Shown: in pieces, positions 10,683-19,066 of the stretch
How positions within the stretch are numbered: the stretch's first letter is position 1
How the letters are laid out: every line of letters starts with the position of its first letter
Assembly: GCA_017452665.1 (NCBI GenBank)
Contig: JAFTLZ010000143.1
Coordinates: 1 to 46,436, forward strand
Direction of reading: 5' to 3'
Length of the DNA stretch: 46,436 bases
DNA from: Clostridia bacterium
GTDB taxonomy: Bacteria > Bacillota > Clostridia > Oscillospirales > CAG-272
The notes under the pieces: generated by a model
Seen by the model: only the letters and a program-made list of their open reading frames with translations
Database searches by the model: none
What the model was told of the DNA's origin: nothing
Program-made: the position numbers and the translations under genes

Positions 10683-11159
10683 TTAATCAACCGTATGGTT
10701 TTCTTTTTCTGTGGGTAAAATATTGTCACGCATTCGTTCCAAAAGCTTCCTCAACAACTCGGTCTCCTCCAAAGAAAAGCCCTCCATCATGTCGGCATCC
10801 AAGCCATGCAAGCGTTCCAATACCTTCCTGTTGTGCTCTTTTCCGCGCTCGGTCAAATACACACGCGTCTTGCGCAGATCCATCGCATCCTGCTCGCGCC
10901 GCACCAAACCCTCGTCCTCCATGCGCTTGAGCGTGACGCTGACGGTAGGAGCCTTCAGGTGTGTCCGTTGCGTTAGCTGCAGTTGGCTGATGCCGTCCTC
11001 ACGTGATAATACGCGCATCATCAGCCGCGCACTGTCCTGCGACATTGCTCCCTCCAATTCATACGCGCGCATTCTGGCGGAGAACAGCCTTGCTATCTCA
11101 TTGACCAGCATACACGGAGTCGGCTGAAAATCAGGTTTCTTTCTCTCCACAAAAACCAC
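10683..11159 (-). CDS. MarR-family transcriptional regulator, first gene of the ABC exporter operon.
   Basis: Winged-helix core LTQRTHLKAPTVSVTLKRMEDEGLVRREQD..DLRKTRVYLTERG. GTG start with an upstream GAGGAAAG. An alternative ATG at 11111 lacks an RBS. Confidence 0.85.
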   Translation of the reverse strand: MVFVERKKPDFQPTPCMLVNEIARLFSARMRAYELEGAMSQDSARLMMRVLSREDGISQLQLTQRTHLKAPTVSVTLKRMEDEGLVRREQDAMDLRKTRVYLTERGKEHNRKVLERLHGLDADMMEGFSLEETELLRKLLERMRDNILPTEKENHTVD

Positions 11160-11193
11160 CTTTCCTCTACCCGGATTTCTCTTGGTTTTAAAA

Positions 11194-11207
11194 ATTAGTT
11201 TACTAAT
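11194..11207. promoter_or_regulatory. Palindrome ATTAGT-tt-ACTAAT just upstream of marR. Candidate MarR operator.
   Basis: Perfect 6-bp arms, 35-48 nt upstream of the marR start codon, in an AT-rich divergent intergenic region. Confidence 0.3.
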
Positions 11208-11421
11208 AAATTATATTCAAATTGGTATGCCATTTCAACAACATTTTGTAAACAAATTTGAAAAACGAGCAAAAAATCGGGCTTATTTCCACCGTGCGGG
11301 ACATTATGGTTATCATTGTTACTTATGAAAGCGCGCGCGTCGGCACACATTAGTAACGGCAATATGCAACAGCCTGCCACCGTAAAAAATCAAAGCCGTT
11401 ATACAAGAAAGGTACAAAATC

Positions 11422-12579
11422 ATGAAAAAAAGAATTTGGAAGCTTTTGTGTTGCTTCCTGCTAATGATTACTGCCGCACAGTCGGGCGCGGTCACAATCA
11501 TGGCGGATACACCTCAAAAGGAGATCGTTTTTGCCATGAGCAATCAAGTCACCGAACCCTTGACGCTTCCCGCAACCTCCACAGCACTTTCGGGGAGCGT
11601 CCTTTCCGACACCGTAGCCACTCTTTCCGCCGATGATCTGCAGGATCTGTATCTGTATCCCGGCGGAATGCCTTTTGGAGTAAAGTTTTATACCGAGGGC
11701 GTCACCGTTGTGGGCGTTTCGGATGTGGAAACCGAAAAAGGAACCGTCAATCCCGCAACCGAGGCCGGACTTCGCACAAAGGACGTGATCCTGAAGGTGG
11801 ACGGCGAGGTCTTATCCGGCGCCTCGGAATTGACCGACCGAATTGAAAACTGCAACGGAAACGCGCTGAACCTGATCTGCCGCCGCGGGAGCAAGACCTT
11901 TGAAACAACGCTGAAGCCGGTCTATTGCAAAGCCGAGGCGCGCTACAAAACCGGAATCTGGGTGCGCGACAGCGGTGCGGGCATCGGAACCGTGACCTTC
12001 ATTCTTCCCGACACGGGCGCCTTTGCCGGCTTGGGGCACGGCATTTGCGATGCGGATACGGGCAGCCTGATCTCTATGAAGCGCGGCAGCGTATCGGACG
12101 TGACCATCTCGGCGGTGGTCAGAGGAGAGTCCGGCAAGCCGGGGGAATTGAAGGGGTATTTCAACGCGGGAAAGGTCGGCGCTCTGCTGGGCAATTCTTC
12201 CTGCGGCGTTTGGGGGATGTTCAGTGAAGTTCCCGATTGTACCGCAGAGCCGCTCCCCGTTGGCTTGAAAGGCGAGCTTGAGGAGGGCGACGCCTATATC
12301 CTCTGCACGCTGGATAACAATAAAACCGAAAAATACGACGTCCGCATCTCCAATATCCATCCCGAAGCCACCGGCTCCAAATGCTTCACGGTTACGGTCA
12401 CCGACCCCGATCTCCTCGCCGTAACGGGCGGAATCGTGCAGGGCATGAGCGGCTCCCCCATCATTCAAAACGGTAAGCTCGTCGGCGCCGTCACGCATGT
12501 GCTCATCAACGATCCCACCACGGGATACGGAATTTTTATCGAAAATATGCTGGTCAATATGCCGCTGATGGCGAGATAA
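11422..12579 (+). CDS. spoIVB: Stage IV sporulation protein B, an S55 signalling serine peptidase.
   Basis: N-terminal hydrophobic anchor, PDZ-like segment (GLRTKDVILKVDGEVL), GLGHGI, and the C-terminal motif [34 protein letters not shown]. Confidence 0.9.
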   Translation: MKKRIWKLLCCFLLMITAAQSGAVTIMADTPQKEIVFAMSNQVTEPLTLPATSTALSGSVLSDTVATLSADDLQDLYLYPGGMPFGVKFYTEGVTVVGVSDVETEKGTVNPATEAGLRTKDVILKVDGEVLSGASELTDRIENCNGNALNLICRRGSKTFETTLKPVYCKAEARYKTGIWVRDSGAGIGTVTFILPDTGAFAGLGHGICDADTGSLISMKRGSVSDVTISAVVRGESGKPGELKGYFNAGKVGALLGNSSCGVWGMFSEVPDCTAEPLPVGLKGELEEGDAYILCTLDNNKTEKYDVRISNIHPEATGSKCFTVTVTDPDLLAVTGGIVQGMSGSPIIQNGKLVGAVTHVLINDPTTGYGIFIENMLVNMPLMAR

Positions 12580-12593
12580 AGAGAAAAAAGTTG

Positions 12594-12644
12594 CTCCTCA
12601 TAAACACACGGCAAGTACGTTTTATGAGGAGTAACTTTCTTTTG
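12594..12644 (+). terminator. Rho-independent-type terminator after the intact spoIVB ORF.
   Basis: Stem CTCCTCATAAA (12594-12604) pairs with TTTATGAGGAG (12621-12631), followed by TAACTTTCTTTT. Confidence 0.6.
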
Positions 12645-12748
12645 TCCCAAAAAGTTTTGTACTTATTATAACATACTCGTTGAGGTATCGTTCAAGGAAT
12701 AGGTGTAGACTAATTCATAATTTTATGATATAATTTTATAAAAGCCTA

Positions 12749-12779
12749 TTGACTTTACAGTTAACTATAATGTTATAAT
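12749..12779 (+). promoter_or_regulatory. MerR-type promoter with a 19-nt spacer and an internal dyad.
   Basis: TTGACT (12749-12754), 19-nt spacer containing TAcAGTTAACTaTA (12756-12769, core palindrome AGTTAACT), TATAAT (12774-12779). GAAGGAGG RBS precedes ATG 12801. Confidence 0.55.
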
Positions 12780-12800
12780 GATACCGAAGGAGGCGATGAC

Positions 12801-13901
12801 ATGATAAAAATAGGTGATTTGGCAAAGATTTGTAATGTTAGCACGCAGACCTTGCGGTATTATGATGCTGAAGGAGTTCTAAAACCGGATATTACAGATT
12901 CGTCAAGCGGCTACCGATTTTATTCGGTCGATGCGGTAGAAAAGTATAAAAAGATTTTATTTTATAAGAATCTTGGATTCTCTTTGGATGAAATCAAAAA
13001 AATACAGTCCGCGACAACGGAGAAATTGCGAGACATTCTGCAAAATAAAAAGGTAGCTTTATCGAAAGCTATCGAAAGATATAAGGAACAAATCAAAACG
13101 ATTGACGGTCTATGCGAAGAAAGTTCACAAAAACCTTTTTTTGCAGAAATCTTGCTTTTGCCTTTTGAAAACGATCCCAAAGTGATTGGCAAATGGCAGT
13201 TGTGCGGCGAGCTCTTTGACGAAAATGACTTGACATCTTTTGAAGAAGTAAAAAGTGATATTGCTGACAAAGAAATCATATTTATGCCTGGCGGCTCTTT
13301 CGCTTGGAGATACTTTTGGACAAAAGGCACGCTGTATAGAATTTCTCCTAAATATACCTTTGCAATTCCCAATTCTTACAGAACGGTTGAGCAGAATGGA
13401 ATTCGCTATATGATCATTCAATTTATGAGCGATGATTGTATTGACAATGGAGAAGATATGCTAACACTCTTCTATCGACAAATCGACAATGTGGCATATA
13501 CTGAACATCAGATACGTTCCAATATTGATAAAACAGATTTGCCGTTTATTGATGATGAATCGGTTCGTGGCGAATGGACAGTTTATGACTATGTCCCCAC
13601 CGTATCGGATTTTGATCCCGATTCTCATTACAGCAATAAAGAGGATATATATGCTGTAGATATTAAATTCTTATCTCGCGGCATCTGTACAAGAACGATT
13701 CGTACCATGTCGGGAAATGCAACCTATACGCTTCGCTACACAAAAGGCTTTGTTCTCAACGATAAAGAAATGACCGCCGAAGAATATCAGATCAAATCAA
13801 TAAGTGGCAAAGATTATCTTTTGGTACAGCATAAATCCGGAGATTATTTTTACGGTGATTTGACGCCGCATTGGTATGTTTTTGAGAGAAAGGATAATTG
13901 A
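12801..13901 (+). CDS. MerR-family transcriptional regulator with a ~250-aa C-terminal extension of unknown fold.
   Basis: N-terminal HTH IGDLAKICNVSTQTLRYYDAEGVLKP....SGYRFYS, then a coiled-coil linker. The C-terminal part looks like two related halves, each opening with a G.W motif (VIGKWQL, VRGEWTV). Confidence 0.85.
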   Translation: MIKIGDLAKICNVSTQTLRYYDAEGVLKPDITDSSSGYRFYSVDAVEKYKKILFYKNLGFSLDEIKKIQSATTEKLRDILQNKKVALSKAIERYKEQIKTIDGLCEESSQKPFFAEILLLPFENDPKVIGKWQLCGELFDENDLTSFEEVKSDIADKEIIFMPGGSFAWRYFWTKGTLYRISPKYTFAIPNSYRTVEQNGIRYMIIQFMSDDCIDNGEDMLTLFYRQIDNVAYTEHQIRSNIDKTDLPFIDDESVRGEWTVYDYVPTVSDFDPDSHYSNKEDIYAVDIKFLSRGICTRTIRTMSGNATYTLRYTKGFVLNDKEMTAEEYQIKSISGKDYLLVQHKSGDYFYGDLTPHWYVFERKDN

Positions 13902-13902
13902 T

Positions 13903-14505
13903 ATGAAAAAGGAAAATAGAGTAGAGCAATATTTTTATCAAAAGGATTTTTCTATATTAGAAATAATTTTGCTAATTATAGCTATTGTTTCCTTAATTGT
14001 AACGACATTTATTCAAGGCGGAGGACCTATAGGTCTTTCAACTTTATTGGTTTGTGTTTTGGCTTTTTTCATCTGTCGTTCGTTCAAAATTAAAGATAAT
14101 GAAATTGAACAAGCCTTAAAAAAAATAATGCAGGATAATAAAGTTAAGTGTTCTGAAAATGCTATTGAATGTTATGAATTAAAAAACACGGTAATAAAGA
14201 AGAGAAAGGACGGAAAATTCATTTCTCCAAAATATTATATTACCGATATTATATTTTCTTCAGAATATACTCTTTTTAATATTTATATTATTGATTTAAT
14301 TAAGCAATCTGTGGAAATGGTTTCTTATAGTGTAAATATTAATCAAATAATCACTTTAAGAGAGGAAACAATAAAAACCAATGCTGGATTGGCCAAAGTG
14401 TCTTACCTCGAAATCGAGAATGGTTGTGTAATTCCTGTTGTACTGAATGATTATAAGTCCTCTCAATTATTACAAAAAATATGTGACAGACATAAACAAG
14501 AATAA
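13903..14505 (+). CDS. Two-TM membrane protein of unknown function.
   Basis: ATG lies 1 nt after the MerR stop, with AAAGGA 9 nt upstream. TM hairpin FSILEIILLIIAIVSLIVTTFI / LSTLLVCVLAFFICRSF, followed by a ~130-aa soluble domain. Confidence 0.7.
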   Translation: MKKENRVEQYFYQKDFSILEIILLIIAIVSLIVTTFIQGGGPIGLSTLLVCVLAFFICRSFKIKDNEIEQALKKIMQDNKVKCSENAIECYELKNTVIKKRKDGKFISPKYYITDIIFSSEYTLFNIYIIDLIKQSVEMVSYSVNINQIITLREETIKTNAGLAKVSYLEIENGCVIPVVLNDYKSSQLLQKICDRHKQE

Positions 14506-14531
14506 AATACTTATTAAATAGGAGATATTAA

Positions 14532-15104
14532 ATGATTTTACCAAAAGATTTACAAAAATATTGCAGAAATAGAATTTTAAAAAGAGTCATTCCTTGTATA
14601 ATTCTGATTTCCGTGTTTGCAACAATATTGATTTTATGGGGAAACGTTATTTTTAATACGGGTAACAAGGCGTTCCAAACATCCTGTTTTATTGTCGTTA
14701 TGTTAATTCCGTTTGTTATCACGGGAGTTCCTCATAAACTGATTGATTCAACTTATTACGGAACAGTAAAGAAAGTCGATATTGTTACTACAACGGATAA
14801 TGATTCTTCCGTTAAACCTACCCGTGAGCACTTATATTTGAAGAATACCGTTTATTTGAGCATTGAACGACCAGACAGTAAGCTCATATATAAAAAAGCA
14901 TATAGCGGTAAGGTACAGTTGCAACAAAATATTAATACGTATAACGAAGGTGATTTGGTATTTCATCTTTACGGAACGAATACTGTTGTTGTTTTGCCCG
15001 ATTACAATGACAACACTGTTCTTTGTGCTGTTTGCGGTTCTTCCAACAATATTGAGAATGATAAATGCCGTGAGTGTGGTCATTCACTAATAAAGGATAT
15101 CTAA
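14532..15104 (+). CDS. Two-TM membrane protein with a C-terminal zinc ribbon; function unknown.
   Basis: AGGAGA 6 nt upstream of the ATG. TM hairpin VIPCIILISVFATILILWGNVIF / SCFIVVMLIPFVITGV. C-terminal CAVC-x10-CREC. Confidence 0.7.
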   Translation: MILPKDLQKYCRNRILKRVIPCIILISVFATILILWGNVIFNTGNKAFQTSCFIVVMLIPFVITGVPHKLIDSTYYGTVKKVDIVTTTDNDSSVKPTREHLYLKNTVYLSIERPDSKLIYKKAYSGKVQLQQNINTYNEGDLVFHLYGTNTVVVLPDYNDNTVLCAVCGSSNNIENDKCRECGHSLIKDI

Positions 15105-15112
15105 ATTGAATC

Positions 15113-15153
15113 ACCGCCGAGGTCATCCATTTTGAGTGCTCTCGGCGGTTTTT
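15113..15153 (+). terminator. Terminator of the cassette operon.
   Basis: Stem ACCGCCGAG (15113-15121) pairs with CTCGGCGGT (15141-15149), followed by TTTTT. Confidence 0.6.
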
Positions 15154-15203
15154 ATGAATTTTCCGTTAAAATGTGTCGTTCTTTACCCAGCACACTCGTG
15201 TCA

Positions 15204-15319
15204 GGCTCCCCTATCATTCAAAACGGCAAGCTCGTAGGAGCCGTCACCCACGTTTTAATCAACGATCCCACAACGGGCTACGGAATTTTTATGGAAATAT
15301 GCCGCTGATGGCAAGGTGA
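15204..15319 (+). pseudogene. Detached, frame-broken second copy of the last ~40 codons of spoIVB.
   Basis: It encodes [29 protein letters not shown], identical to the intact gene, despite 11 synonymous differences in 87 nt. A 13-nt deletion follows, then a matching ATGCCGCTGATGGC..stop. Confidence 0.85.
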
Positions 15320-15366
15320 CCGAATGCGGAATAGGGAATGCGGAGTGCGGAATTGAATCAGAAAAG

Positions 15367-15403
15367 GCAATATCATTCCATAATGGTTTGATATTGCTTT
15401 TTT
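15367..15403. terminator. Hairpin plus T6 after the spoIVB remnant. Possibly bidirectional with the convergent AraC gene.
   Basis: Stem GCAATATCA (15367-15375) pairs with TGATATTGC (15389-15397), then TTTTTT. An A-rich run lies upstream. Confidence 0.55.
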
Positions 15404-15447
15404 ACAGATCGGTGCTTGCGGGAGAGGCGGACGGAAAAGTATCCCGG

Positions 15448-16185
15448 TTATGAGCGCGATGCAAAGCGAAAAGCGGATGGCGAAAGGGTTGTATGCTTTT
15501 TGAAGAAGTTACTAAAATAATATTCGTTTTCAAATCCGCAGGCGGATGAAATATCCTTGATCAGAAGATCGGTATCCGCAAGTAGCACTTTCGCCTTTTG
15601 TAAGCGAAGTGCGATGATATAATCGGAGGGAGTCATTCCCGTAAAACTCTTGAAGCGGCGCAAAAACTGCACGTAGGACAGCCCGCTCTCCTCGCCGATC
15701 CTTGCAAGATCCACGCCGATATGAAGGGTGCGGCGAATTTTTCCAACGGCGTCCTCAATGGTGGCGTCGATGCTTTGCATACTGCGGTTTTCCATTGCGT
15801 GTTGCATGGCAAGGTCGGCAAACAGATGGCTGCGACATTCAAAATCATTGCCAAACACCTCGGCGTCCAACTGCTCCAGCATGGAAAGGGTGGTTGAAAG
15901 ACGTGCCTGATCGTGAAAGATCACGTGATCGGTGTCAAATGCATGCTCCTCGGATTTATATCGGAACAGATACATGGTAACGGGGGTGATCACGCGGCGG
16001 TGATACAGCACGTTTTTTCTGAAAAGTGCGCCCTCATTTTTTTGTATGACAAAGCTCCCCTCTTCGTTTTCCATGTAAAAACTCCCGTCCTTGACAAGCG
16101 CAAATATATCATCCGTACCGATAAAATTTTCCATGATGAATTGCTCACGGTATACACGCAGGGCAACGATCAGTTGTATTTTCAT
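15448..16185 (-). CDS. AraC-family transcriptional regulator.
   Basis: C-terminal double HTH (LSYVQFLRRFKSFTGMTPSDYIIALRLQKAKVLL ... ACGFENEYYFSNFFKKHTTLSPSAFR). ATG 16185 with GGAGA 5 nt upstream. Confidence 0.85.
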   Translation of the reverse strand: MKIQLIVALRVYREQFIMENFIGTDDIFALVKDGSFYMENEEGSFVIQKNEGALFRKNVLYHRRVITPVTMYLFRYKSEEHAFDTDHVIFHDQARLSTTLSMLEQLDAEVFGNDFECRSHLFADLAMQHAMENRSMQSIDATIEDAVGKIRRTLHIGVDLARIGEESGLSYVQFLRRFKSFTGMTPSDYIIALRLQKAKVLLADTDLLIKDISSACGFENEYYFSNFFKKHTTLSPSAFRFASRS

Positions 16186-16294
16186 AGCAATCTCCGATGA
16201 TAAAATATTATATCTTTATTATAACAGAGCGTATTGAAAATGTCAATATATCGGTGCTATAATAAAGATACGAAAAAAATCAACGGAGGAAAAA

Positions 16295-17173
16295 ATGGGA
16301 TATATCAGTATATTGATCGCCCTGCTCGCGGGTACGGCCAAGGGCTACATGGGCAAGCGATTGAGCAACACCGTGACAACGCACAGGCAATCGGTGTTTG
16401 TCAACATGGTACGCATGGTGATCTGTATTTTCATCAGCGCAGCGGTCCTTGCCGTCGAGGCATGGAGCAGCGGATTTTATATGGACGGTGCCGCATGGGG
16501 ATTGGGTGTGCTTGCGGGTGTTACGGTTTCGCTGTTTATGGTCACATGGATGCTGACGGTGCGCCGCGGTGCGTTTATGCTGATCAGCGTGGCGCAAATG
16601 TTCGGCGTCGTGGTGACACTGGTCTGCAGTTTTATCGTGTTCCGCGATCCCATCACTCCGTGGCAGCTCTTAGCAATTGCAATCCTGACGGTTGCCGTGC
16701 TGATCATGGTGTCATACAGTGCGGGGATCAAGGGGAGGCTCAGCATCGGCTCGGTGATTCTGCTGATCGTCTGTGGGGTATCCAGCGGATTGTACGACTT
16801 CTCTCTCAAGCTGTTTACCCACTATTCCGAAGCAAGCATCTCCACGCTGAACCTGATCTCGTACTTTGTGGCTGCGATCGCCTTGTTGACCGTATTTTTG
16901 CTTCCATCCGAGGGTGGGAAATTTGATGCGGGAAAAATGCTCCGCTCGACGCTGATCACGATTGCGATCATGTCGGTGTGCTTGTTTATCAATTCCTATT
17001 TCAAGGCGCTTGCCAACGACTATCTTCTGCCGGCGCAGGTCTATCCGATCTATCAGGCAGGCGGCTTGATTTTCAGCGCGGTTATGGCGGCAGTGTTCTT
17101 TCAGGAGAAGATCACTTTGCGATGCGTGATCGGTATGGCACTTGCGTTCGTTGCGATTTTGCTTTTGAAATAA
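16295..17173 (+). CDS. Polytopic membrane transporter, EamA/DMT-like (tentative).
   Basis: About ten hydrophobic helices in two halves. GGAGGA RBS precedes ATG 16295. Confidence 0.65.
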   Translation: MGYISILIALLAGTAKGYMGKRLSNTVTTHRQSVFVNMVRMVICIFISAAVLAVEAWSSGFYMDGAAWGLGVLAGVTVSLFMVTWMLTVRRGAFMLISVAQMFGVVVTLVCSFIVFRDPITPWQLLAIAILTVAVLIMVSYSAGIKGRLSIGSVILLIVCGVSSGLYDFSLKLFTHYSEASISTLNLISYFVAAIALLTVFLLPSEGGKFDAGKMLRSTLITIAIMSVCLFINSYFKALANDYLLPAQVYPIYQAGGLIFSAVMAAVFFQEKITLRCVIGMALAFVAILLLK

Positions 17174-17191
17174 CAAAAAGGAGAAATGAAA

Positions 17192-19066
17192 ATGTATCGG
17201 TTGAAAAACGGAATTCTTTATAAGAGTGAGAAAAAAACGTTCGGCTTGGGAGAGTCCTACTATCCGTCTTTCCATCCCTGCAAATTTCCGGTTCCGCCCG
17301 AGGGGGATCGGATCGGGGAAATGAAAAAGGATCTTGCCATGATGGCGGAGATCGGCTTCAATCATGTTCGCTTTGCCGCGCTGGGAGAGGTGACGTTGGA
17401 TGCGGACGGCACAGCTGCCGTCAACACCCCCTTTATTGACGCCATGGTGGAGGAGGCAGATAAAAACGGTATTTCCGTGTCGATCCGAGAGCAGGGGTAC
17501 GTGGTCAATCTGCGGAATTTTGAAAACGCCGAAATGGTGGACTGGAACGGCGAAAAGCAGGAGACGGTGTGGTCGGATTTCATTCGTACGACGCTTCATC
17601 ACGACGGGATCCTGGAGGACAACCGCACGCACGCAGAGGCGCTTTCAAGGCATTACGGGGCGTACCCCAATACGGTGGCATTCCAGATCTACAACGAGCC
17701 GCACTATCCGGGCACACAGATGTATGACTATCATGAGGAAACTGTCAAGGCGTATCGCAGGTGGCTGGTAGAGAAGCAGATCCTCACCGAGGAGGAGGCT
17801 GTGGAGTATCTGCCGCCGCGCGGAAGACGGGAGCAGGGCGAGCGTATGTGGGCGCTGTGGCGTCTGTTTGCGCGGGACAGCCTGACCAACTTTTTGAACA
17901 ACGCGTCCGTTGGCTCCAAGCGCGGATCCGCGCTCCCGACCTATACCTGTATGACCAACGACCAGATCGCGAAGCGGGCGGCATATAGGGGCTGTGATAT
18001 TTTTGCGAATGCCAAAGAGATGGATCTTGTCGGATATACCTGCTATTTTCACGGGAGGGGCATTGACTACTACCCCCTATGTCTTTTGACGGATATTGCA
18101 CAGTGTGCCGCAGAGCTGGAGGGAAAGGAGTCGTGGTGCATTGAGCTGGACAGCCGTACCTACATTCCGATTCCTCTGTACAATCGCACCACCTATACGG
18201 TGATCGGCTCGGGTGCGAAGGGAATCGTGTACTATCAATGGCGGGGCGACTGTCCCGTGGAGGGCGTGCCGCATCCGAACAGCTGTGGGATCTTGAACTA
18301 TGACGGAACGAAAACGCACAATTTCGAGAACGCGGCAAACGTCAACAGATACGTCATCGGCATGAATGATCTTTTGATGGGGGCAAGACGCGCGCACGAG
18401 GGCGTAGGTCTCCTTCATTCCGATTATGCAATCTATCTCTGCGACGCGCGGGAAAACGGAGAGCGGCAGGCAAGGGGTGAGGACATCCGCAATTCCTATT
18501 TGCTGGAGTACACGGAGGTGCACAAGCAGCTCAGACAAGCAGGATATAATGTTACCGTGACCGATGCGGAGCACCTGGACAAAAACGCATTTGGCATCAA
18601 GGTTTTGTACGTTCCGTATATCAATATGCTCTCGCCCGAGGAAAAGGCAGCGGTGGAGCGGTTTATGAAAAAGGGCGGTGAGGTGTATATGATCTCTTAC
18701 CCTTGCTGGGATGGGGCGTGTTTGGGATACGCGAAATATGAGGGAGAGGTCAAGTCGCGCGAGGGGCTGACGCTGGACAGTATGTGCTCGGTGTACGACG
18801 TTGCCGACCTGACGGGCATTTCTCCGCGGGTTGCACCGCTGGATCCGTACCTTGGTGTGCAGCTTCTTGAGGGGGACGGATACCACTTGGTTGTCCTGAC
18901 CAATATTTCGGTTGCAAGAGAGCGGATACGTGCGAGAATGCGCGTGGATATTCCGTTTGCAACGGCGCGCTTTTATGCCATGGACGGTGAGAAGGCAGTG
19001 CACATCAGCGGCAACGAGCTGACGGTTGAGGACGTGACCGACGGCGGCATTCTCATTTTGAAATAA
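17192..19066 (+). CDS. Glycoside hydrolase, clan GH-A, GH42-like beta-galactosidase type (tentative).
   Basis: QIYNEPHYPG acid/base-type motif and WCIELDS as a candidate nucleophile region. ~620 aa. The AAAGGAGA spacing favours ATG 17192 over 17186. Confidence 0.65.
   Translation: MYRLKNGILYKSEKKTFGLGESYYPSFHPCKFPVPPEGDRIGEMKKDLAMMAEIGFNHVRFAALGEVTLDADGTAAVNTPFIDAMVEEADKNGISVSIREQGYVVNLRNFENAEMVDWNGEKQETVWSDFIRTTLHHDGILEDNRTHAEALSRHYGAYPNTVAFQIYNEPHYPGTQMYDYHEETVKAYRRWLVEKQILTEEEAVEYLPPRGRREQGERMWALWRLFARDSLTNFLNNASVGSKRGSALPTYTCMTNDQIAKRAAYRGCDIFANAKEMDLVGYTCYFHGRGIDYYPLCLLTDIAQCAAELEGKESWCIELDSRTYIPIPLYNRTTYTVIGSGAKGIVYYQWRGDCPVEGVPHPNSCGILNYDGTKTHNFENAANVNRYVIGMNDLLMGARRAHEGVGLLHSDYAIYLCDARENGERQARGEDIRNSYLLEYTEVHKQLRQAGYNVTVTDAEHLDKNAFGIKVLYVPYINMLSPEEKAAVERFMKKGGEVYMISYPCWDGACLGYAKYEGEVKSREGLTLDSMCSVYDVADLTGISPRVAPLDPYLGVQLLEGDGYHLVVLTNISVARERIRARMRVDIPFATARFYAMDGEKAVHISGNELTVEDVTDGGILILK

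Follow-up and report, generated by a model that had tools for sequence, protein, structure and literature searches.

Why should an AT-rich stretch of DNA, with a promoter, three genes and a terminator of its own, lie between an intact sporulation gene and a second, detached copy of that gene's last codons? The question is raised by spoIVB in the 46-kb window that we analysed, i.e. the whole stretch from position 1 to 46,436 of Clostridia bacterium contig JAFTLZ010000143.1 (assembly GCA_017452665.1). The features of the locus are as follows.

11422 to 12579, + strand: intact spoIVB, 385 aa (TIGR02860, 358 bits; Pfam Peptidase_S55, 1.4e-78)
12446 to 12447, + strand: TG of the Met codon, immediately 5' of the repeated segment and the presumed crossover point
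12448 to 12579, + strand: attached spoIVB tail copy (SGSP...NMPLMAR, stop), which aligns with 15201-15319
12580 to 12701, + strand: left backbone, from the backbone profile and folding, with a hairpin (12584-12641), the TTTTGTCCC T-run and a third arm copy (12655-12679)
12702 to 15121, + strand: cargo, comprising a promoter, three genes and the start of its own terminator
12749 to 12779: MerR-type promoter, TTGACT-19 nt-TATAAT
12801 to 13901, + strand: MerR-family regulator gene (Pfam, NCBIfam)
13903 to 14505, + strand: gene for a 200-aa protein, unannotated by Pfam and NCBIfam
14532 to 15104, + strand: gene for a 190-aa protein, unannotated by Pfam and NCBIfam, with a zinc-ribbon-like C-terminal end
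15112 to 15155, + strand: the cargo's own terminator hairpin (15108-15155 folds with z -4.4)
15149 to 15200, + strand: conserved right end of the cassette, which aligns with the right ends of cassettes and recombinase-bearing elements
15175 to 15200, + strand: L-arm, GTCGTTCTTTACCCAGCACACTCGTG (nhmmer L-arm profile, E 4e-9 to 1e-7)
15201 to 15319, + strand: detached spoIVB tail copy, with an I-to-M change and a frame-shifting 13-nt deletion
15320 to 15361, + strand: short GAATGCGGA-like repeats
15362 to 15403, + strand: resident spoIVB terminator, AAAAGGCAATATCATTCC...GGTTTGATATTGCTTTTTT, matching that of L007, L132 and L134

An earlier, sequence-only reading of this DNA had paired 12451-12579 with 15204-15319 as two copies of the spoIVB end, and local alignment bears this out. 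Positions 12451-12542 match 15204-15295 (92 nt, 87% identical) and, after a 13-nt gap in the detached copy, 12556-12575 match 15296-15315 at 19 of 20 positions; the pair scores 142, whereas none of 287 other window segments exceeds 29. That reading had placed the start of the homology directly after GMS(G), which is correct for the nucleotide alignment from 12451, but at the codon level the similarity begins one codon earlier, at the Ser (AGC at 12448, TCA at 15201) of the G-M-S-G-S-P catalytic motif, the codons of which occupy 12442-12459. Before this Ser the gene has ATG, the detached copy GTG. The differences between the tails are almost all synonymous, as had been noted: among 31 comparable codons there are 11 synonymous changes and one non-synonymous change (I to M), where only 25% of random single changes would be expected to be synonymous. 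The I-to-M change and the 13-nt deletion reported for the detached copy are both seen in the alignment, and both copies encode the clade-typical ending NMPLMAR.

The AT-richness of the insert was examined by windowed GC, one of the checks that had been proposed, and is clear, with values of 25-39% across 12600-15150 compared with 53-62% in spoIVB. The promoter, three genes and terminator previously assigned to this 2.7 kb cassette are likewise present, and each tail copy is indeed followed by a hairpin terminator: a terminator-like hairpin in the left backbone (-28.1 kcal/mol; 12580-12650 folds with z -6.7) and the resident terminator downstream of the detached copy (-21.3 kcal/mol; 15352-15410 folds with z -6.6). 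These data confirm that the tail duplication and the AT-rich cassette between the copies are real. The DNA 3' of the attached tail is cassette-family sequence and not the clade's usual terminator, as a profile built from 14 such backbones at other loci matches 12582-12679 (nhmmer, E 1.3e-7); taken with the L-arm at the right end, this places the window cassette in the family described below at both of its ends. In addition, ~25 nt just 5' of the window L-arm are common to a subfamily. The cargo was captured from elsewhere, as shown by the module 12706-15104, which has 82% DNA identity with three loci in unrelated, non-spoIVB contexts (L121-L123) and is also present in six more (L124-L129). No transfer genes were found in the cassette and, again in agreement with the sequence-only reading, ORF and domain searches found no integrase or recombinase gene within the cassette or elsewhere in the window.

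Related Clostridia have ~50 different cassettes with unrelated cargo 3' of an intact spoIVB, all of which share a terminal L-arm of ~26 nt that meets a detached spoIVB tail at one fixed position, just after the TG of the Met codon in G-M-S-G-S-P. The same motif precedes every detached tail, and all detached copies start at the Ser codon right after this TG. Across 80 loci, each about 20 kb long, the L-arm motif occurs only adjoining spoIVB; a metagenome motif scan recovered 41 sites, and at all of them the next sequence is either the palindromic partner of the motif or a spoIVB tail, truncated or not. TG stands at 46 of the 48 distinct cassette junctions (with unrelated cargo, in some cases with the cargo stop codon inside the motif), at 7/7 recombinase-bearing junctions and in all intact genes. 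An extra tail copy, a second or third, beginning at the same Ser codon was present in 8/52 species-representative loci with at least 3 kb of downstream sequence, and further loci also show extra tails. Between two of the loci, L086 and L098, the right end is far better conserved than the neighbouring coding sequence. The two closest relatives, with SpoIVB 78-79% identical, keep the upstream order ABC-ABC-MarR-spoIVB and hold different cassettes at the same point, and the spoIVB site is occupied in both of the only two contigs that exist for the species itself. The window and all 80+ loci have an intact spoIVB, and no disrupted copy was found in any sequence collection searched. These data clearly show a cassette family with an invariant junction. 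Many of its members carry a 49-bp palindrome (the arm plus an inverted copy), of which the conserved arm makes up just one half; the window and type-1 cassettes have the L-arm at the right and an inverted arm at the left, a pairing missing from many members, and no short target duplication was seen. Recombinases were absent from the 12 cassettes examined and from 90 further ORFs, and no recurrent recombinase family was present among 146 ORFs directly downstream of spoIVB in other species, which matches non-autonomy.

The L-arm-tail junction also terminates large elements, in which three large serine recombinase genes lie directly beside it. At six loci, L136, L137, L138, L156, L162 and L164, three tandem genes with Resolvase, Recombinase and Zn_ribbon_recom domains end 10-40 nt before this junction; the third gene adjoins the arm, and the window has the same arrangement of arm and tail (15175-15200 followed by 15201), with the junction after TG. 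The window right end is homologous to the right ends of these elements (nhmmer E 5.7e-8 and 1.7e-7), a comparison that covers right ends, as the L138 contig, walked for 35 kb, ends before the left end is reached. The closest solved relative of the recombinase is TnpX, with SPbeta SprA also among the solved relatives. Recombinase P0242 recurs unchanged, with an unchanged right end, beside three different tails (L156, L157/L159 and L158), and divergence sets in at the first base after TG. The window cassette is thus shown to have recombinase-bearing relatives, and because the arm-tail junction also ends these elements, we regard it as a non-autonomous one.

The proposal that foreign DNA had entered the spoIVB 3' end and that a replacement end had kept the frame is supported by the recurrence of the junction in ~50 cassettes, by the different cassettes at the same point in the two closest relatives and by the recombinase-bearing elements that share the junction. 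A single arrangement of host-like composition in all relatives had been named as a result that would speak against it; instead, the inserts of the relatives differ and that of the window is AT-rich. We therefore favour, with a probability of roughly 0.6, the reading that 12448-15200 is a non-autonomous member of a family of serine-recombinase integrative elements that insert into spoIVB after TG and replace its 3' end. The left end of such an element would be its own copy of the last ~43 spoIVB codons plus a terminator, spoIVB would read through into this functional replacement tail, and the right end would be the ~26-nt arm, which after insertion would abut the displaced resident tail. We infer that recombinases act on arm-tail sites, that TG is the 2-bp crossover, at which the triplet recombinases of full-size members would catalyse the exchange, and that the tail travels with the element. 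The window cassette would then move only via recombinases in trans or, rarely, via RecA between its two tails; mobilisation in trans and decay of an element had both been left open by the sequence-only reading. The 13-nt loss in the displaced tail probably came after insertion, and since excision would now break spoIVB, the cassette may be effectively locked in.

The classical polarity appears to apply, with the attached copy incoming and the detached copy resident. The detached copy is probably the resident end because close relatives have its terminator, which in three of them follows intact spoIVB. Codon usage had seemed to run against the expectation that the detached copy is native, an oddity that does not survive this finding, nor the observation that at synonymous sites both window tails are about equally distant from relatives. 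A similar picture is seen in L079, a host with 35% GC, where the end of the attached tail and the palindrome match those of hosts with 52-61% GC and the detached tail runs into the neighbouring host gene.

A different mobile unit is conceivable, although we consider it unlikely. The unit would run from the inverted arm to the L-arm (~12621-15200 in the window), with the 49-bp palindrome, formed when its ends join, as attP, and would have entered a pre-existing arm-tail site downstream of an intact gene; on this view the tail would have been duplicated before the cargo arrived, and this cassette would not be the source of the attached tail. The palindromic attP would serve autonomous elements as well, whose entry into spoIVB itself would disrupt the gene, as known triplet elements do their targets (PMC4701971). 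The palindrome does have the size and symmetry of a serine-integrase attP and lies exactly at the left of many cassettes, and L037 is a cargo-free tandem tail duplication with an arm-tail junction. In L097, moreover, two cargo blocks are separated by an arm that runs straight into an inverted arm, without a tail. However, eight cassettes, at L029, L040, L044, L062, L075, L076 and L132 and the first at L134, have no left inverted arm, their left ends consisting of the tail and an ordinary terminator only, and the disrupted genes are not seen. Next to a third arm copy lies a short sequence similar to the spoIVB codons that immediately precede the junction, as would be expected of a reciprocal product of gene and inverted arm, but this likeness amounts to 13-18 nt and was not recovered by a profile search. 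The origin of the first arm-tail platform would also be left unexplained.

It is improbable that homologous recombination alone built these loci, with one ancient illegitimate event making the arm-tail junction, RecA exchange between conserved tails that serve as portable homology without a dedicated enzyme thereafter, and recombinase elements that merely landed in the array. In its favour, no recombinase is linked to any cassette, and tail copies are mosaic: the two tails of L079 are identical for 87 nt and different only beyond, and those of L029 and L076 are identical on the 3' side, terminator included. Given this pattern in L079, RecA-type exchange or gene conversion does also act on tails. 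Such exchange accounts poorly for the three P0242 joins that diverge from the first base, for recombinase genes that always directly abut the arm, for arm-to-inverted-arm junctions without a tail (L097) or for a right end that stays intact beside ~50 unrelated cargos, sometimes overlapping their stop codons, and is better conserved between L086 and L098 than the coding sequence next to it. An old duplication of the spoIVB end, local and fixed in this lineage, followed by an unrelated insertion and implying no mobile family, would fit the NMPLMAR ending of both copies, but merits hardly any credence since it is already contradicted by the differing inserts of relatives at the same nucleotide, the three-tail P0242 joins and the right ends and other flanking motifs common to distant hosts and recombinase-bearing elements, and by the compositionally foreign insert.

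Our literature search found no description of a spoIVB-targeting cassette or element system, and the element family that we favour, widespread in gut Clostridia, is apparently undescribed. Its autonomous members resemble the triplet serine-integrase ICEs of Streptococcus, which disrupt mutT, traG or hsdM and have 2-8 bp repeats (Ambroset et al. 2016; PMC4701971), in their three tandem large serine recombinases at one extremity beside the attachment site, in site-specific insertion within a protein-coding gene, in paralogues that group by triplet position (1-1, 2-2 and 3-3 pairs 45-90% identical, ~30% between positions) and in the conjugation genes of some relatives (L160). Unlike these ICEs, they target a sporulation protease in gut and rumen Clostridia, spoIVB is whole wherever it was seen, the repeat consists of ~130 bp of coding tail, and most copies found are small, recombinase-less and stacked in arrays. 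The window cassette itself was rejected as an autonomous large-serine-recombinase element, there being no such ORF in the cassette or window.

The cassettes are also comparable with cis-mobilizable elements (CIMEs) and with decayed ICEs and IMEs that arise at the 3' ends of genes by accretion (review, PMC5704250; ICEberg 2.0, PMC6323972), having attL/attR-type direct repeats of the target end (in the window, 12448-12579 and 15201-15319), no recombination or transfer genes, tandem neighbours at the same site and a mobility presumed to depend on a related autonomous element, with which the right att end is here shared. In contrast, the CIMEs described so far descend from elements that have a tyrosine integrase and short att repeats; here the recombinases are serine enzymes, the cassettes greatly outnumber the autonomous elements seen and are much more diverse, and compact conserved ends abut unrelated cargo in a more cassette-like manner than in deletion remnants. 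Tycheposons and other tRNA- and gene-3'-end islands likewise retain the displaced target end as a partial copy, include integrase-less members and accumulate remnant arrays at one hotspot, although they target tRNA genes, mostly with tyrosine recombinases, in other hosts (bioRxiv 10.1101/2020.12.28.424599). A diversity-generating retroelement was rejected, as Pfam and NCBIfam domain searches found no reverse transcriptase and the tail differences are synonymous and involve all four bases. Skin (in sigK) and SPbeta (in spsM) are also large-serine-recombinase elements in sporulation genes of spore-forming Firmicutes; both interrupt a mother-cell gene, which is restored by their excision during sporulation. 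spoIVB, which is expressed in the forespore, is never split and receives a replacement end, and a skin-type intervening element was rejected since ORF 11422-12579 is complete.

Arrays of small, diverse, recombinase-less cassettes at one chromosomal site, with a conserved recombination-site-like end motif able to overlap the cargo stop codon, recall integrons, which are essentially not known from the host phylum. Unlike integron cassettes, those described here have their own promoters and regulators, a docking site in coding sequence and a spare gene end each. An integron was rejected, as no intI tyrosine recombinase lies beside any array (a single motif match is 7 kb upstream in L047) and no tyrosine recombinase is among the recurrent Pfam families of cassette and spoIVB-downstream ORFs; so was an attC site, the junction region 15150-15260 having no significant fold or hairpin (z -1.8). 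We tentatively suggest that spore-forming gut Clostridia may use the spoIVB tail as the dock of an integron-like platform for gene capture, in which triple-serine-recombinase elements service many small cassettes. If so, a new cassette system, based on serine instead of tyrosine recombinases, would stack, swap and release both elements and cassettes at the catalytic-serine codons of a sporulation protease that is essential, and decay of the displaced end would make the newest cassette indispensable for sporulation, an addiction through the gene tail.

Several points speak against the favoured reading. Known triplet serine-integrase elements disrupt their targets and have repeats of 2-8 bp only (PMC4701971), and recombinase genes are absent from the window and from all of the 134 host loci. 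In the model of insertion after TG, moreover, the circle junction and the target would share one half-site. The attP and attB half-sites of canonical large serine integrases differ, and the 49-bp palindrome, resembling a classical serine-integrase attP, suggests a different partner site.

The window carries the end of spoIVB twice, once on the intact gene (the attached tail) and once downstream of an intervening cassette (the detached tail), and the features concerned are as follows.

Features of the window around the duplicated spoIVB end
11422-12579, SpoIVB ORF (TIGR02860, 358 bits; Peptidase_S55, 1.4e-78)
12448-12579, attached tail
12448-15200, cassette
12582-12679, left backbone of the cassette (profile match, E 1.3e-7)
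12706-15104, three-gene cargo module
12749-12779, cargo promoter, TTGACT...TATAAT with a 19-nt spacer
14532-15104, third cargo gene (190 aa)
15149-15200, right end of the cassette, closing with the L-arm
15201-15319, detached tail, a repeat of the last ~43 spoIVB codons
15320-15361, GAATGCGGA-like short repeats separating the detached-tail stop from the resident terminator
15362-15403, terminator past the detached tail
15448-19066, AraC regulator (- strand), EamA transporter and GH42-like enzyme

Codon-level likeness between the tails opens at a serine codon (AGC at 12448, TCA at 15201); by alignment 12451-12542 and 15204-15295 are 87% identical, and, once past 13 nt that are missing from the second copy, 12556-12575 pairs with 15296-15315. 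This alignment scored 142, against no more than 29 for 287 other window segments, and 11 of the 12 differing codons are synonymous, where chance would give 25%. These data clearly uphold the sequence-only reading of two tail copies with nearly all differences synonymous. The AT-rich insert that it placed between them was also confirmed, GC being 25-39% over the 2.6 kb separating the copies and 53-62% in the spoIVB gene, as were each of its proposed terminator hairpins, all three of which fold (z -6.7, -4.4 and -6.6), and its statement that the cassette holds no recombinase, the genes there being a MerR-family regulator and two unannotated ones.

The 19-nt spacer of the cargo promoter matches the expectation for a MerR-activated promoter, and the ~250-aa domain that closes the regulator at its C-terminus matches the Cass2 effector-binding family only weakly (E 0.0027). 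A PADLOC run on the cargo returned only the generic helix-turn-helix of this regulator, and an Rfam search of 11000-16500 at a permissive threshold gave chance-level matches only. The cargo module is 82% identical to a three-gene module found in other genomes in contexts unrelated to spoIVB, where it is likewise AT-rich, so the window cargo was acquired from another source. The closest copy (L121-L123; L121 8001-12003) adjoins a prophage-like element with one large serine recombinase, 20-25% identical to the triplet enzymes described below, and capture via aberrant excision of such a neighbouring element is conceivable. In the only other contig of the window's species (L130), the third cargo gene encodes 112 aa (11111-11449), which may reflect cargo decay in that strain.

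The two closest relatives, with SpoIVB 79% and 78% identical, have the same upstream order as the window (ABC-ABC-MarR-spoIVB) and carry at its insertion point a different cassette, each terminated by a detached tail; this favours the insertion that had been proposed over an ancient fixed duplication. The terminator past the detached tail matches that following intact spoIVB in three other loci (L007, L132 and L134), and the hairpin past the attached tail is cassette-family sequence. Locus L079 shows the same polarity, with the detached copy as the resident: in this 35% GC host the attached tail has an end sequence common to 52-61% GC hosts, and the detached tail continues into the host's next gene. 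The earlier remark that codon endings in the window tails point to the opposite polarity did not hold, since synonymous-site distances to relatives are about the same for the two tails, and the oddity thus carries no signal.

A SpoIVB scan with one genome per species returned 80 loci, all from uncultured gut or rumen Clostridia/Oscillospiraceae, the best only 70% identical. Extra tails lie downstream of intact spoIVB in 11 loci (L017, L021, L029, L037, L040, L044, L062, L068, L075, L076 and L079), including 8 of the 52 with at least 3 kb of downstream sequence; they begin at exactly one residue, with a spacing of 0.14 to 6 kb, and differ from the attached copies by 125 synonymous and 19 non-synonymous codons. 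The cargos are mutually unrelated accessory genes.

Cargo sets of individual cassettes
sialidase, lyase and AraC
two AAA_14 ATPases
XRE/TPR regulators
Fic and antitoxin
AraC, glycyl-radical enzyme and the activase of that enzyme
xylose-utilisation set
KDG kinase and aldolase
GH32 enzyme

Of 90 ORFs from other loci, 13 encode AraC and 5 EamA proteins, the two commonest kinds of cargo, and HTH_18 of the AraC type occurs in 17 of 146 ORFs. None of the inserts examined encodes a recombinase, nor was one linked to any cassette or array among the arrays, the 90 ORFs and the 146 ORFs downstream of spoIVB. A search for closely related glycyl-radical cargo in different hosts found distant relatives only, and so did not demonstrate recent cargo transfer. 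Separately, detached tails of three species (L040 ~11809-11860, L132 ~15245-15300 and L110 ~2085-2132) contain, at one site after ...VGA, a hairpin-rich insertion of 45-51 nt with 70-75% mutual identity, which in L040 leaves the reading frame open and which may represent either a very small mobile insert or an event that has recurred.

In front of each detached tail stands the L-arm, a motif of ~26 nt with the consensus GTTGTCCCTnCTTGAmCACACTC, after which come three variable bases, the last two nearly always TG. Across the 80 loci its profile matched solely beside spoIVB, and a metagenome scan gave 41 sites, ~30 of which are followed by V/L/M-SGSPIIQ...; at ~8 of the 41 the motif makes up the left half of a palindrome of ~49 bp, and the remainder precede truncated tails. 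In total we recovered 48 distinct arm|tail junctions, at some of which 0-25 nt separate the L-arm from the stop codon of the cargo, or the codon falls inside the arm (L079 and L132). Many cassettes also share a left backbone, in which the attached-tail stop is followed by a terminator-like palindrome (arm, 3 nt, inverted arm and T-run), ~50 nt homologous to the right end, and a third arm copy. The window has both family ends. The left backbone had no BLAST match in plasmid and phage collections, and a test for circular contigs found none. A right-end subfamily (L017 ~14105-14160; L081, L101, L103, L104 and L134) has repeated TGTCGAA motifs, which resemble the Spo0A box and lie 25-60 nt ahead of the arm. 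Many metagenome contigs break at the arm, and 7 of the 80 loci end within 400 nt of the spoIVB tail (L001, L002, L007, L008, L011, L034 and L069), a pattern to be expected if tails are repeated or the site is polymorphic among strains.

A strict L-arm scan of viral contigs gave 0 matches and missed the recombinase-bearing elements, whose arms differ slightly; these were later found via the tail peptide, which identified three viral contigs ending in L-arm|tail. All three have, immediately upstream of the arm, three tandem genes of ~540-570 aa with Resolvase, Recombinase and Zn_ribbon_recom domains, the nearest solved relative being TnpX of Tn4451, with the TP901-1 and SPbeta integrases next. 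Homologues are very common, in protein clusters of up to 1733 members, and their contigs run from a DUF6870 gene through three recombinase genes, arm and spoIVB tail into host genes. In L164, the first host gene past the tail is spo0A, the classical and ancestral downstream neighbour of spoIVB. When aligned, the right ends of the cassettes and those of the recombinase-bearing elements prove homologous. Recombinase P0242 is the decisive case, its protein and right end being identical throughout while the three tails joined to them (L156, L157/L159 and L158) diverge from the first base after TG. The triplet paralogues are orthologous by position, as reported for the triplets of streptococcal ICEs (PMC4701971). 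The DUF6870 gene always stands ahead of the first recombinase gene, and its product is a candidate directionality or accessory factor.

DUF6870 genes (82-89 aa)
L156, 6260-6508
L160, 6261-6509
L162, 6267-6536
L164, 6267-6515

In L160 a related triplet (third gene 63% identical) lies inside a conjugative-type element that ends in an arm-like sequence, GTGTCGTTTTGTCAAGAGAAGTGTG (11612-11680), with no spoIVB tail after it and with a transposase gene fragment nearby (Pfam Transposase_mut, 95 aa); the triplet may use a different target, or the site may be rearranged.

The most economical reading is that of an integrative element with strand exchange at TG. Serine recombinases would exchange strands at the TG that A-TG-AGC in the gene has in common with arm-TG-tail at the element junction; the element would supply a replacement tail, by which spoIVB survives, the displaced tail would remain fused to the arm, and repeated insertions would give stacked cassettes. 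The window feature looks like an inactive member of this family: having ends and no enzymes, it would depend on recombinases in trans, and now that the tail it displaced has decayed, selection would act against excision. The chief uncertainty is that the left end of the autonomous elements lies outside the recovered sequence. Walking leftward along the L138 contig in three viral-contig scans, we reached the contig end before any element left end; in the viral contigs carrying the 5' part of spoIVB the gene was always intact and belonged to another clade; and a search downstream of spoIVB in host loci for homologues of autonomous-element genes gave one match, an XRE-type regulator in L071, judged uninformative.

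We therefore keep alive a rival model in which what moves is the stretch bounded by the inverted arm and the arm, inserting at an arm|tail site already present, as suggested by the 49-bp palindrome, a cargo-free tail duplication in L037, an arm-to-inverted-arm junction in L097 and a possible reciprocal-junction relic, which was not confirmed when a later gene-side junction profile returned nothing significant. RecA-type exchange also acts on the tails, as shown by mosaics in L079, L029 and L076, but it cannot account for an identical element in three hosts, or for ends kept beside ~50 different cargos. A tyrosine-integrase island (no tyrosine integrase near any array), an integron (no intI, no attC fold) and a diversity-generating retroelement (no reverse transcriptase; synonymous changes at all bases) were rejected.

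The interest lies in the family revealed rather than in the window's own copy. To our knowledge, the replacement-gene-end strategy is described for tyrosine-integrase elements and not for triplet serine integrases, and a full-text literature search linking spoIVB with integrases, attB, serine recombinases, islands or hotspots found nothing relevant. Two of the closest described systems are the CIME type, in which integrative elements have given rise to non-autonomous derivatives (PMC5704250, PMC6323972), and the streptococcal ICEs with triplet serine integrases, whose insertion disrupts the target and leaves repeats of 2-8 bp (PMC4701971), whereas the spoIVB family has a ~130-bp replacement tail instead. 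Integrons, tRNA-end islands/tycheposons and skin/SPbeta intervening elements each share single features with this family. It stands apart from all of these by joining serine recombinases, a target in the catalytic motif of a forespore sporulation gene, the replacement tail, and extensive arrays of small cassettes that lack a recombinase. This identifies a recurrent accessory-gene hotspot in uncultured gut and rumen Clostridia, tied to one enzyme family and one 2-bp position, with AraC-regulated sugar and glycyl-radical-enzyme modules, sialic-acid use, toxin-antitoxin pairs, regulators and iron uptake among its cargo, and a serine-recombinase element family that spares its target through a carried gene end. 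As the recombinases and their ~50-bp sites are abundant and sequence-defined, the system is directly testable, and it could attract interest as a tool for genome integration. In annotation terms, it accounts for the short Peptidase_S55 pseudo-ORFs downstream of spoIVB and for the breaks that assemblies show there.

The window showed no other detectable arm or tail. Repeats similar to those following its detached-tail stop (AATGCAAA) occupy the equivalent position in L023 and L037. The AraC, EamA and GH42-like block just past the detached tail may be an older cassette with an eroded right end.
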